Positions 28,390-34,529 of a stretch of 64,000 nucleotides of DNA are shown here, piece by piece (positions within the stretch are counted from its first letter, which is position 1; every line of letters begins with the position of its first letter). A model generated the notes under the pieces. That model was given only the letters and a program-made list of their open reading frames with translations, ran no database searches and had not been told where the DNA came from. The DNA comes from an uncultured Actinomycetes bacterium. GTDB taxonomy: Bacteria; Actinomycetota; Acidimicrobiia; IMCC26256; DASPTH01. Location: contig CAVZKC010000004.1 in NCBI GenBank assembly GCA_963775795.1, positions 820,028-884,027 on the forward strand. The letters are read 5' to 3'. Both the position numbers and the translations under genes were made by a program.

Positions 28390-29211
28390 TCAGGAGAGGA
28401 TGTCTTTTCGGTTGAACCACCACCACGCGATGACCAACGGCACGACGATGTAGGGGATGACGAGGAGCGCGCCGCGCAGCATGTCGTTGGTGGGGCCAGT
28501 GCCGCGAATGAACATGGTGGTCCAGGCATCGAAGTGGTGCGTGGGGAATGCTGACCGGATTCGTCCGAGGGCGCTGATGCCATCGAGAACCTGGGACACG
28601 ATGTAGATGCCGATCGCCGAGAAGATCGCGCCGGCCGGGGTATCGGTCATGGTCGAGGCCATGAATCCGAATGCGATGGCCGGCGTGAGGCTCCACAGGA
28701 CGTAGACGGTGGCGAGGGCCAGGCTTGCGAGGATGTGGGTGCTGGATTCGGGCGGGGCGCCGGAGATCTGGAGCGGGTGCCAACCGAAGGCGACGCCGCC
28801 GAGGGCGAGACCGGTGAGTGGGACGAGTGTCGCGGCCACCACGGCGAGCAGCGCCGCGCTCGCGAGCTTGACGGTGAGGAGCCGGGAACGGGTGATGGGT
28901 CGGACGAGCATTGCGCGCAGGTTTCCCCAGCTGGCCTCGGAGGCGATCGCGTCGCCGGCGAAGACGGCGACGACCACCACGAGGAGGAATCGGCTCAGGA
29001 AGAACAATGATGCGACACCGAGGTACAGGCCCGTCTTGGTGGCCAGGTAGGCGTAGGCGTCTTCTGCGTCGTTGGGATTGGGCGACGGTGGGTTGGATTT
29101 CAGGGCGATGGTGAAGATCAGTGGGATCAGGACGAGGATGCCCAACGCGATGTAGGTGCGCGGTCGGCGCCATTGCTTGAACATCTCGGTGCGAAACAAG
29201 GCAACGGTCAC
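28390..29211 (-). CDS. ABC-2 type exporter permease
   Basis: GTG 29211 overlaps the ATPase stop (GTGA). 273 aa, 6 TM helices, typical ABC-2 layout. Confidence 0.8.
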   Translation of the reverse strand: MTVALFRTEMFKQWRRPRTYIALGILVLIPLIFTIALKSNPPSPNPNDAEDAYAYLATKTGLYLGVASLFFLSRFLLVVVVAVFAGDAIASEASWGNLRAMLVRPITRSRLLTVKLASAALLAVVAATLVPLTGLALGGVAFGWHPLQISGAPPESSTHILASLALATVYVLWSLTPAIAFGFMASTMTDTPAGAIFSAIGIYIVSQVLDGISALGRIRSAFPTHHFDAWTTMFIRGTGPTNDMLRGALLVIPYIVVPLVIAWWWFNRKDILS

Positions 29212-30122
29212 GTGGCGTCCGGTTCGATCAAGCCCAGGAACGCGTCTTCGAGGCGGTGGCGGGAGGTCACGGTGTCGACGGCGAAGCCGTGCTCCACGAG
29301 AGTGCGCACCACGTCGGCCCGCGAGATGCCGTCGAGCTCGACGGCCAGGCCTGCGCCTTCTGCGGTGACGGTGCGCACGCCGACGCGCGCGGCGAGCACG
29401 ACCCGGGCACGGGGGATGTCGTCGACTTCGAGGTACATCGACGCGGCGGCGCGGGTGAGCTCGACGACGGTCCCCGTGCGAATGACGCGGCCGCGGTCCA
29501 TCACCACCAGCTGGTCGCAGACCTGCTCGACCTCTCCGAGTAGGTGGCTCGACAACAGCACGGTGACGTCCTCTTCGGACACGCGTCGGAGCAACGTCCG
29601 AACGTCGCGCATCTCCGCCGGATCGAGGCCGTTCGTCGGCTCGTCGAGCACGAGAACCTGGGGAGCGCCGAGGAGCGCCCGCGCGATGCCGAGCCGCTGG
29701 CGCATGCCTTGGGAGTAGGTCTTGACCTTGCGGTGCAAGGCGTCGCCGAGTCCGGCGATGCCCAGGGCGCGGTCGAGGTTCGCGTTCGCGAATTCGCCGC
29801 CGGCCGATTCCCAGTACAGGCGCAGGTTGGTCAGGCCCGACAGGTGCGGCACGAACTCGGCGTGCTCGATCATGGTGCCGACCTGGGCCAACACTCGGCA
29901 GCCGGGATCGACGTCGTCGTCGAGGAGCCGCGCGGAACCGGAGGTGGGCCGCACAAGCCCGACGAGCATGCGCAGCGTCGTGGTCTTGCCGGCGCCGTTG
30001 GGGCCGAGCAGTCCGCAGACCGAGCCCCGCTGCACCTGGAAACTGACCGTGTCGACCGCCCGGACGCCGCCGCGGAACTGCTTCGTGAGTGCGAGCGACT
30101 CGATAACGACGTCGTCGGTCAT
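29208..30122 (-). CDS. ABC exporter ATP-binding protein (DrrA/ABC-2 partner type)
   Basis: Walker A GPNGAGKTT, signature YSQGMRQRL, Walker B VLVLDEPTNGLD. Confidence 0.9.
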   Translation of the reverse strand: MTDDVVIESLALTKQFRGGVRAVDTVSFQVQRGSVCGLLGPNGAGKTTTLRMLVGLVRPTSGSARLLDDDVDPGCRVLAQVGTMIEHAEFVPHLSGLTNLRLYWESAGGEFANANLDRALGIAGLGDALHRKVKTYSQGMRQRLGIARALLGAPQVLVLDEPTNGLDPAEMRDVRTLLRRVSEEDVTVLLSSHLLGEVEQVCDQLVVMDRGRVIRTGTVVELTRAAASMYLEVDDIPRARVVLAARVGVRTVTAEGAGLAVELDGISRADVVRTLVEHGFAVDTVTSRHRLEDAFLGLIEPDAT

Positions 30123-30125
30123 AGC

Positions 30126-33150: not shown

Positions 33151-33254
33151 GCGTCGATGTTCGGTCGGGGAGCCTGAACTGGCGCTGAACTGCGGGCGAA
33201 CGGCTGCTCGTCGGGTTCAGCGGCGATTCAGCCGCACCCCGGCACGATCACGGT

Positions 33255-34286
33255 GTGTATCCCGTGCGCACTGCTGGGTCGCTCCCGGTGCGACGTCGGG
33301 TGCGGCCACTGATCATTGGGGAGCTCGCGGTCGTCGCGTTGCTCCTGGTCGTCTACGACCGCGTCCGCGGAGTCGCGCACGTCCACCGGGCGGCGGCCGT
33401 CGCGCACGGTTGGGCAATCATCCATCTCGAGACCGCACTCCACCTGGGCGTCGAATCCACGGTCAACCAATGGCTCGCGGGTCACACACTGCTCGGCCGG
33501 ATCGCCGTCGACTACTACCAATACCTGCACGTCACGGTGGCTCTGTGCCTGCTCGTTGCCTGCTATGTGTTCCGGCCGTCGGTGTACCGCCCCGCGCGCA
33601 ACGCGCTGCTCATCGTCAATGCCGTGGGCCTCGCCATCTATCTGCTCTACCCGGTCGCACCGCCCCGCCTGCTGCCCGGAACCACGTTCCTCGACCTGGT
33701 GGCCCGGGCCGGCTTCGGGCCGACCCATGGCGGGCCGATCCCCATCAACGAGTACGGAGCCATGCCGTCGCTGCACCTCGCGTGGGCGGCCTGGGCCGCA
33801 CTCGTCGGGTTCGCCATCACCGAAGTGCTCTGGATACGCGGCCTCGTCGTCGTACATGTGTTCCTGACCGCGTTCGTCGTCGTCGGGACGGCGAACCACT
33901 ACCTCCTCGACGTCGTGATGGGTGTCGCACTCGCGGGCTTCGCCGGCGGGTCCGCCCTCCTCCTGCGGACAGGCACGATCGCCGGCCGGTCTCGGAGCGC
34001 CACATCAACGGAGGCGCTAGCGGACGCCGGAATCGATGTCGAGCGGTGCGAGGGCGAATGTGAGGTCGGCGACCCAGACGCTTCCGAGTATCCACCCGCC
34101 AAGGACATCCGTTGCCCAGTGCACGCCGAGGTAGACGCGCGACACGCCGACGAGGAACACGATCAGCGTCGCAGCGGTCCGGGTCAACAAGGACACGAGG
34201 CCGGAGCGGCCAATGACGGTGACCACGCCGGCGAGCGCGAAGTAGGTCGCTGCGACTTGGGTCGAATGGCCGGACGGGAACGCTGA
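33255..34286 (+). CDS. PAP2_3 / Aur1-Ipt1-like phospho(inositol)transferase-type membrane protein; C-terminal limit uncertain
   Basis: Motifs AMPSLHLAWA and GTANHYLLDVV. The ORF runs 270 nt into the convergent PAP2 gene, so the true 3' end is doubtful. Confidence 0.65.
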   Translation: MYPVRTAGSLPVRRRVRPLIIGELAVVALLLVVYDRVRGVAHVHRAAAVAHGWAIIHLETALHLGVESTVNQWLAGHTLLGRIAVDYYQYLHVTVALCLLVACYVFRPSVYRPARNALLIVNAVGLAIYLLYPVAPPRLLPGTTFLDLVARAGFGPTHGGPIPINEYGAMPSLHLAWAAWAALVGFAITEVLWIRGLVVVHVFLTAFVVVGTANHYLLDVVMGVALAGFAGGSALLLRTGTIAGRSRSATSTEALADAGIDVERCEGECEVGDPDASEYPPAKDIRCPVHAEVDARHADEEHDQRRSGPGQQGHEAGAANDGDHAGEREVGRCDLGRMAGRER

Positions 34287-34529
34287 CGAGAGCGGTTGTT
34301 GGAGGTGTATCCCGACGGGCGGCCGAGCGCGCTGCACGACCTCTTTGCTCAGGATGCTGAGGATCGATGCTCCGCCGACGGCGAGCGCGACGAACAGTGC
34401 GAGCCAACCTCGGGAGCAGATGACAAGAGCCACGGCAGCCGCGAAGGCGATCGGAATGACCACCGCGCTGCTTCCGAGCCAGGTGACGATCTGCATCGTG
34501 TGAGTCCACGTCGGCGTGCGGTGGTCCAC
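34017..34529 (-). CDS. PAP2-superfamily lipid phosphatase
   Basis: Acid-phosphatase motifs KEVVQRARP, SFPSGHS, SRVYLGVHWATDVLGG. Confidence 0.75.
   Translation of the reverse strand: MDHRTPTWTHTMQIVTWLGSSAVVIPIAFAAAVALVICSRGWLALFVALAVGGASILSILSKEVVQRARPPVGIHLQQPLSSAFPSGHSTQVAATYFALAGVVTVIGRSGLVSLLTRTAATLIVFLVGVSRVYLGVHWATDVLGGWILGSVWVADLTFALAPLDIDSGVR

Follow-up and report, generated by a model that had tools for sequence, protein, structure and literature searches.

Two bacterial operons are the closest described systems to the locus reported here. In gpgSDF of Pseudomonas aeruginosa, a GT4 glycosyltransferase makes N-acetylglucosaminyl-phosphatidylglycerol (GlcNAc-PG), a deacetylase converts it to glucosaminyl-PG (GlcN-PG), and the third gene codes for a UPF0104 protein, a predicted flippase (PMC12713373). 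In Clostridioides difficile, hexSDF, which is under the adjacent HexRK, leads to an aminohexosyl-hexosyl-diradylglycerol and has a part in resistance to daptomycin and bacitracin (PMC10128005). We analysed a stretch of 64,000 nucleotides (C4:820028-884027, hereafter the window) from genome G000 of an uncultured member of the Actinomycetota (2.56 Mb, about 70% G+C). The window harbors a cluster of three genes coding for a GT4 glycosyltransferase, a PIG-L/LmbE-family zinc deacetylase and a UPF0104 membrane protein (the trio), followed by the genes of an ABC ATPase and an ABC-2 permease and facing a divergent PAP2_3 gene. From its sequence, the trio is probably a synthase-deacetylase-flippase module for a membrane lipid bearing an amino sugar, likely glucosamine.

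Across Actinomycetota, these three genes are conserved as neighbours. The window PIG-L returned thousands of homologues, and gene order was compared in a sample of 80 named genome loci with 10-kb flanks each. Nearly all loci with a PIG-L at least about 51% identical to that of the window carry adjoining GT4 and UPF0104 genes, in various orientations, and the Streptosporangiaceae and Intrasporangiaceae are prominent among them. Clustering of all neighbouring open reading frames (ORFs) in 43 loci retrieved only three recurrent families, PIG-L and GT4 in all 43 and UPF0104 in 35 at a strict threshold, with no further conserved neighbour beyond lineage synteny. In the PIG-L tree, the trio-type proteins form a single clade (support 99, 61 rows) that includes the window protein. 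Both GT4 and UPF0104 lie within 4 kb in 41 of the 47 members of this clade having a glycosyltransferase neighbour, the other six having GT4. In a group nested within the clade, comprising proteins of Mycobacterium, Streptomyces and Amycolatopsis, linkage is lost. The trio-clade PIG-L genes of L050-L063, L066 and L070 (Mycobacterium, Mycolicibacter, Streptomyces and Amycolatopsis) stand without GT4 or UPF0104 next to them; the partners may sit elsewhere in these genomes, or the enzyme may serve another role. GT-C glycosyltransferases, Ppm1-like GT2 enzymes and two-component systems are not supported as general partners of the trio, being found by tblastn in only a few of the 80 loci; they are conserved only in the window lineage and in a paralogous locus of the same genome.

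In the window, the five genes are chained on the minus strand as the sequence-only reading had described. Direct reading of the sequence recovers the same order, with an ATGA overlap between the PIG-L start and the GT4 stop, GTGA overlaps at the UPF0104/PIG-L and permease/ATPase junctions, and a 3-nt gap separating the ATPase from the UPF0104 gene. The divergent PAP2_3 gene, the second PAP2 gene and the dgkA remnant noted in that reading are likewise recovered by Pfam matches and coordinates, and every assignment of GT4, PIG-L, UPF0104, the ABC pair, PAP2_3 and PAP2 surpasses the Pfam gathering score (Table 1). GT4 and PIG-L contain no hydrophobic segment, UPF0104 about eight, and the permease and PAP2_3 six each. 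The lengths of the five genes are identical in four metagenomic contigs of about 91% DNA identity, and all show dN/dS values of 0.09-0.19 with respect to the 91% relative (L089), indicating real genes under purifying selection. A scan for consensus sigma-70 promoters and terminators gave nothing informative.

In the pathway that we propose, the soluble GT4 enzyme would transfer GlcNAc, or another N-acetylhexosamine, from a UDP-sugar to a lipid head group at the cytoplasmic face, and the soluble zinc-dependent PIG-L enzyme would then strip the acetyl group and leave a free amine. The MprF-type UPF0104 protein would carry the resulting lipid, by then cationic or zwitterionic, across to the outer leaflet, giving a less negative surface charge. 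In this lineage, the six-transmembrane (TM) PAP2_3 enzyme, whose catalytic histidines are predicted to face outward, may act on or with the flipped lipid, either by phospho-head-group transfer with release of diacylglycerol (DAG) or by dephosphorylation. The acceptor would most likely be a phospholipid such as PG or phosphatidylinositol (PI), DAG and a glycolipid being further candidates, and the presence of an inositol-1-phosphate synthase in the genome makes PI possible. Streptosporangiaceae and Intrasporangiaceae have been described with unidentified glucosamine-containing phospholipids; as these families are prominent among the trio loci, this favours a phospholipid acceptor, although only as a lead.

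The two enzymes could instead belong to a soluble pathway for a low-molecular-weight thiol or pseudo-sugar, of the MshA/MshB or BshA/BshB kind, the membrane genes being mere neighbours. The nearest solved structures of GT4 are indeed MshA, BshA and PimA (E about 1e-11 to 1e-12), and that of PIG-L is MshB (59 bits), with which the AHPDDE and HPDH metal/base motifs align; these motifs are invariant in 21 PIG-L homologues and the first reads AFHAHPDDE in the window protein. However, GT4 reaches none of the NCBIfam equivalogs (73.1 bits against a cut-off of 462.5 for MshA, TIGR03449), and PIG-L scores 127 bits with the MshB model TIGR03445, below its cut-off of 224.35. Moreover, a full-length MshA-like gene lies elsewhere in the genome (C4:808974-810155, 408 bits, model positions 1-404), and one of its seven PIG-L paralogues exceeds the cut-off for Mca (292 versus 277). 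These scores and separate genes rule out MshA/MshB orthology, which the sequence-only reading had named as a refutation of its lipid pathway. Since UPF0104 is a conserved neighbour and several lineages have PIG-L in one protein with a membrane enzyme, a soluble thiol pathway is hardly credible.

Assignment of the third component as a probable flippase draws on its predicted fold. The AlphaFold2 model of the window UPF0104 protein (pLDDT 82.5, pTM 0.78) has MprF as all of its top six Foldseek matches in the PDB (TMq 0.55-0.59, prob 1.0), and no non-MprF structure was found there below E 0.1. The aminoacyl-PG synthase domain LPG_synthase_C is absent from the protein (Pfam) and from the genome (tblastn), and no solved GluNU structure was found in the literature searched. 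The idea of a glucosamine lipid made inside, flipped and then exported is thus in part upheld, by the conservation of GT4, PIG-L and UPF0104 and by a model that matches MprF only; the export step, attributed to the ABC-2 pair, is not borne out by gene comparison, as developed below.

PAP2_3 accompanies the trio recurrently but not obligatorily. Among homologues of the window protein, PAP2_3::PIG-L fusions of 534-570 aa occur in at least nine protein clusters. One of them (P0277, at least 24 contigs) is encoded in an operon of the order GT4, fusion, UPF0104, and its PIG-L half is 64% identical to that of the window. The link between PAP2_3 and the pathway suspected from the window is borne out by such fusions within GT4/UPF0104 operons. 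PAP2_3 genes also adjoin the trio in L041 and L099. From hydropathy and the positive-inside rule, the fusion is predicted to be N-in with six TM segments and C-in; this leaves the PIG-L domain cytoplasmic and puts the histidines of the PSLH and NHYxxD (His/Asp) motifs, which are also visible in the window protein, on the outer side. This topology fits deacetylation inside, flipping, and then a PAP2_3 reaction outside. The window protein scores 23.3 bits with the phosphoinositol dihydroceramide synthase model NF052609 (cut-off 480), and its alignment with the L089 counterpart, of 248 aa, covers residues 1-229 of the latter with a dN/dS of 0.14. In Actinomadura violacea (L010, 8052-10795) a PAP2_3 gene (50% identical) lies by GT4 and PIG-L, and no UPF0104 gene turned up in the vicinity. 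The fusion operon of L119 (5307-6837) is preceded by BlaR/BlaI-like genes (Peptidase_M56 and Penicillinase_R) and by TCTACA..TGTAGA palindromes in its upstream region, suggesting that the module responds to another regulatory input there.

The ABC-2 pair is, as judged from sequence comparison, a late and lineage-specific add-on to the trio operon. The synteny search proposed in the sequence-only reading, which upheld the trio, found the pair with it only in the window and its 91% relatives: the five-gene operon is restricted to the window and to contigs with a 91%-identical PIG-L, the permease is found in none of the 80 related loci, and the paralogous locus of G000 lacks the pair as well. Contigs whose PIG-L is 76% identical have three other genes in place of the pair, coding for a 216-aa protein, a second UPF0104 protein and an LPG_synthase_C (aminoacyl-PG synthase) protein. 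In L093 (10831-15765; also L094 and L095), the 216-aa product has no Pfam match and the LPG_synthase_C protein is 751 aa long, and the second UPF0104 with LPG_synthase_C looks like a split MprF beside an amino-sugar lipid module. The occurrence of MprF-like genes at this place suggests that the operon belongs to membrane-charge modification. Orthologues of the permease (52-77% identity) are found in unrelated contexts; three of the four lie beside their ATPase (one after a TetR gene), the fourth having no called ATPase gene adjoining.

That the pair is instead a dedicated exporter or floppase of the glucosaminyl lipid, making the five genes one obligatory pathway, is nevertheless conceivable, given that the 3-nt gap and the GTGA overlap couple it to the trio and that the arrangement is kept in the 91% relative with dN/dS values of 0.10-0.19, indicating a functional pair in the window lineage. 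The ATPase is moreover nearest to the nucleotide-binding domains (NBDs) of ABCA-type lipid transporters, its nearest solved relatives also including NosF, Rv1218c (aligned over its full length) and PmtC. This similarity, however, is common to DrrA-type ATPases generally; the window protein scores 195.5 bits with the DrrA subfamily model TIGR01188 without reaching its cut-off of 312.45, these relatives are compatible with any amphipathic substrate, and the permease matches no solved structure. As a predicted dedicated flippase is already encoded, and as the pair is lacking from all 80 loci and from the paralogous one, is replaced in the 76% cousin and stands alone elsewhere, we regard a dedicated exporter as unlikely. 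The same synteny rules out the pair as a conserved partner of the trio, and the earlier view of the exporter as an integral part of the pathway is not supported. As an add-on, the ATPase and permease would represent a mobile two-gene cassette recently joined to the 3' end of the operon, most likely expelling an amphipathic envelope-active compound and less likely the lipid itself.

A second, complete paralogous locus is present in the same genome (C4:1873054-1884430, L008). Its GT4, PIG-L and UPF0104 proteins are 55%, 60% and 54% identical to those of the window, and it further contains paralogues of the whole accessory gene set of L089, namely the kinase (63%), the regulator (75%), PAP2 (42%), a Ppm1-like GT2 (58%) and a GT87-like protein (49%), together with a PMT_2-like GT-C and a phospholipase-C-like gene. 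In the PIG-L tree both copies fall in one five-row clade, the second copy being sister to the fusion type. Apart from G000, which lacks it, the taxonomic family of the window shows only a distinct "solo" PIG-L subfamily (44-53% identical, L100-L118, from this family and the order), for which no conserved partner was found. One genome of the same order, G022, has a trio with PAP2_3 and a two-component system. The patchy distribution of the trio within the order fits lateral acquisition.

Both loci appear to share a regulon defined by a GTTCAG-N5-GTTCAG box. The 104-bp divergent spacer between GT4 and PAP2_3 contains two copies in opposite orientation, and a third precedes the regulator gene. 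With at most one mismatch, three boxes are observed in the window versus 0.19 expected, a count reached in none of 100 shuffles. Over the genome there are six, all in promoter regions of the two paralogous loci, where they precede GT4, PAP2_3 and the regulator of the window copy (A) and the PMT_2-like GT-C, the Ppm1-like GT2 and the regulator of the second copy (B); a seventh, with two mismatches, precedes GT4 of copy B (copy-B positions C4:1876156, 1876492, 1880881 and 1884471). The spacing from box to start codon is exactly 23 nt for the five structural genes, the two-mismatch site included, and all five show nAnnnT at -12 to -7, as one would expect of leaderless transcripts with an OmpR/PhoB-type activator bound at -40 to -24. 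Both regulator genes have spacers of 40 and 44 nt with Shine-Dalgarno-like runs. The boxes are conserved in the 91% and 76% relatives (L089-L095), the latter having an extra one 23 nt before an MptA_B::GT2 gene, and the other fetched loci (about 1.9 Mb) hold four scattered singletons. Confinement of the boxes to two loci suggests control by the adjacent OmpR-type regulator. We infer that this regulator controls the operon, PAP2_3, its own gene and the GT-C/GT2 genes, and the box-preceded units of the window would most likely be switched on by it, much as HexRK acts on hexSDF.

The glycosyltransferases of this regulon open two further possibilities for the product. In the first, PI would be the acceptor and the lipid would resemble the core of a glycosylphosphatidylinositol (GPI): GlcNAc-PI would be converted to GlcN-PI, flipped, glycosylated outside, and then subjected to PAP2_3 head-group transfer or trimming. 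The outside sugar would come from a polyprenol-phosphate sugar; the regulon includes a GT-C of the GT87/MptA_B type, either fused to a Ppm1-like synthase or next to one. These PimE/MptA-like GT-C and Ppm1-like genes make an elaboration similar to the GPI core, or to phosphatidylinositol mannosides (PIMs), possible, but we consider this GPI-like route as a whole rather improbable. If true, it would provide a bacterial counterpart of the early GPI-anchor pathway with a named flippase for the flipping step, which to our knowledge is still debated in the eukaryotic pathway and unknown for mycobacterial PIMs.

In the second, the trio would make and flip a polyprenyl-phosphate-GlcN donor, from which a GT-C of the regulon would transfer GlcN to a wall polymer or lipoglycan outside. 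The order of synthase, de-acylase, flippase and GT-C is that of ArnC, ArnD, ArnE-F and ArnT, and GT-C genes (GT87/MptA_B-like and PMT_2-like) with a Ppm1-like GT2 lie in the box regulon of both loci and of the relatives. Nevertheless, the polyprenyl-phosphate sugar synthases known to us are GT2 enzymes and not GT4 as in the window, the GT4 lipid enzymes known to us glycosylate hydroxyls of PI, PG or DAG, and PimA is among the nearest solved structures. As GT-C/GT2 neighbours were found at only one of the 80 other trio loci, we judge this Arn-like scheme very unlikely, and retain an amino-sugar membrane lipid as the probable product.

The window copy bears several scars. By blastn it is colinear with L089 over 28390-33998 and again over 35027-35994, the latter comprising the regulator gene and the first ~65 kinase codons. 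Native PAP2_3 sequence extends to ~33998, and a foreign read-through tail stands in for its last ~19 codons; an insert of about 1 kb has taken the place of the PAP2_3 end, which explains the 270-nt read-through overlap. After 35994 the sequence switches abruptly into an integrase N-terminal remnant beside tRNA-Lys, whereas the relatives continue with a full kinase gene (L089, L091), a GT87/MptA_B::GT2 fusion and a PAP2 gene. The dgkA alignment covers only part of DAGK_prokar, indicating a 5' truncation. Third-position GC content (GC3) is slightly low for GT4, PAP2_3, UPF0104 and PIG-L (0.80-0.86), and no att repeat of the tRNA-Lys 3' end was found within the window. The island-like character suggested for the region is in part confirmed, being supported by the truncated integrase, the tRNA, the insert, the deletion scar and the GC3 values, but not by an att repeat.

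Three observations concern the borders of the locus. Upstream of the PAP2 GTG start (34530-34560), the frame reads FDAEITR*FVDHRTP, with an in-frame TGA where PAP2 proteins usually continue, and the gene may have lost its N-terminal part or been made a pseudogene by a point mutation. Five perfect 12-bp repeats (28009-28068, GGRT repeats in one frame) lie directly 3' of the permease stop. Pfam gave no match for two guessed frames at 27236-27800.

Such scars raise the possibility that the window copy is a decaying duplicate, no longer properly expressed, while the paralogous locus does the work. The kinase is deleted, the integrase and dgkA are truncated, the PAP2_3 tail is replaced and PAP2 is probably N-terminally cut. 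By contrast, no frameshift interrupts the five genes of the operon, the core of PAP2_3 or the regulator gene, all of which are intact, selection on the operon is purifying (dN/dS as above), and all three boxes are intact. The window copy could still receive its signal from the paralogous kinase and regulator, and decay is thus a rather remote prospect.

Table 1. Features of the locus, in window coordinates
Feature	Position	Strand	Remarks
ABC-2 permease, 273 aa, 6 TM	28390-29211	-	Pfam ABC2_membrane_2 58.9 bits
ABC ATPase, 304 aa, DrrA/ABCA-like	29208-30122	-	Pfam ABC_tran 105 bits
LPG_synthase_TM/UPF0104, MprF-type flippase-domain membrane protein, 359 aa	30126-31205	-	PF03706 70.3 bits ("F")
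PIG-L/LmbE-family zinc deacetylase, 277 aa	31202-32035	-	Pfam PIG-L (PF02585) 103.5 bits; predicted de-N-acetylase ("D")
GT4 retaining glycosyltransferase, 372 aa	32032-33150	-	Pfam Glycos_transf_1 96.5 bits, Glyco_transf_4 53.3 bits; predicted N-acetylhexosamine:lipid transferase ("S")
Predicted response-regulator box GTTCAGCGCCAGTTCAG	33174-33190	-	23 nt before GT4 start codon
Predicted response-regulator box GTTCAGCGGCGATTCAG	33215-33231	+	23 nt before PAP2_3 start codon
PAP2_3 (Aur1/sphingomyelin-synthase-like) 6-TM enzyme	33255-34286	+	PF14378 137 bits
Insert of ~1 kb with PAP2 fragment and truncated dgkA	33999-35026		blastn colinearity breaks versus 91% relatives
PAP2 phosphatase fragment	34017-34529	-	Pfam PAP2 65.6 bits
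dgkA remnant, 5'-truncated	34723-34992	-	DAGK_prokar positions 23-102 of 102
Predicted response-regulator box CTTCAGCGCGCGTTCAG	35058-35074	+	40 nt before regulator gene start
OmpR-family response regulator	35115-35792	+	Response_reg 97.5 and Trans_reg_C 91.4 bits; 96% identical to L089 regulator
Cognate histidine kinase stub, first ~65 codons	35789-35994	+	Alignment to L089 stops at 35994 within kinase gene
Tyrosine integrase N-terminal remnant	35980-36402	-	Arm-DNA-bind_4 and Phage_int_SAM_3 only
tRNA-Lys	36497-36571	-	Adjoins integrase remnant

If confirmed, the trio would account genetically for membrane lipids with glucosamine in a large share of Actinomycetota, and its product may include the "unknown glucosamine-containing phospholipids" of actinomycete chemotaxonomy, a connection to be taken as a lead only. 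It would also mean that lipid modification by synthase, deacetylase and flippase arose with a third, unrelated deacetylase family, and that PAP2_3 is a recurrent fourth component of the scheme. Through the box regulon, extracytoplasmic glycosyltransferases are connected with the lipid module, as are MprF-like or ABC-2 genes in sister lineages; the whole has the look of a modular locus by which soil actinobacteria would adjust envelope charge and resist antibiotics. The second paralogous locus, the box-defined regulon and the scarred window copy are newly described here. The regulon, the PAP2_3 fusion and the paralogous locus offer concrete experimental handles, and the regulatory circuit is directly testable.

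Several points speak against an amino-sugar lipid module of this kind. GpgF and HexF are themselves no more than putative flippases (PMC12713373; PMC10128005), and no paper characterising an actinobacterial trio was found in the literature searched. The window GT4 is not orthologous to GpgS, scoring 31.2 bits with the GpgS-type GlcNAc-PG synthase model NF053787 (cut-off 480) over its C-terminal part only. GpgD is a deacetylase of the COG3233 family (PMC12713373), whereas that of the window is PIG-L/LmbE; similarly, HexS is MGDG-synthase-like and HexD a polysaccharide (CE4) deacetylase, unlike the window GT4 and PIG-L. Three unfused PAP2_3 homologues lie in unrelated contexts. Finally, given the kinase deletion and the replaced PAP2_3 C-terminus, the window copy may be poorly regulated or decaying.

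Among known systems, PIG-A/PIG-L, the two opening steps of the eukaryotic GPI pathway, and MshA/MshB of mycothiol synthesis share with the window a GT4 transferase, predicted in the window to use GlcNAc, followed by a PIG-L-family zinc de-N-acetylase with conserved motifs, but the window proteins fall under the MshA/MshB thresholds in a genome with separate MshA-like and Mca genes. MprF shares the flippase TM-domain fold predicted for the window UPF0104 protein; it differs by its aminoacyl-PG synthase domain, while in the window the cationic group would derive from a deacetylated amino sugar, and it is the operon of the 76% cousin that additionally carries an LPG_synthase_C gene. Exporters of the DrrAB/BcrAB type, including Rv1217c-Rv1218c and PmtCD, similarly consist of one ATPase and one 6-TM ABC-2 permease, from which the window pair differs by its score below the equivalog threshold and its attachment to a lipid-modification operon. 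HexRK-HexSDF is a synthase-deacetylase-flippase operon adjoining, and controlled by, an OmpR-type two-component system. Its acceptor is a glycolipid and it has no ABC or PAP2_3 partner, whereas in the window predicted boxes precede the operon and the regulator is present with its kinase deleted, the relatives having both. GpgSDF also combines a soluble GT4, a soluble deacetylase and a UPF0104/MprF-type membrane protein in a three-gene operon, and yields an amino-sugar lipid via an N-acetylated intermediate, the scheme proposed by analogy for the trio; the window host differs in being a monoderm actinobacterium with PAP2_3, a two-component system and the ABC-2 pair attached. That no characterised bacterial system has this exact gene set, as stated in the sequence-only reading, is literally true, but overlooked the logic of GpgSDF and HexSDF. 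With other deacetylase families and a non-orthologous GT4, the likeness of the trio to these two systems is one of logic rather than orthology, and by this analogy the trio is most likely an uncharacterised actinobacterial version of the synthase-deacetylase-flippase scheme.

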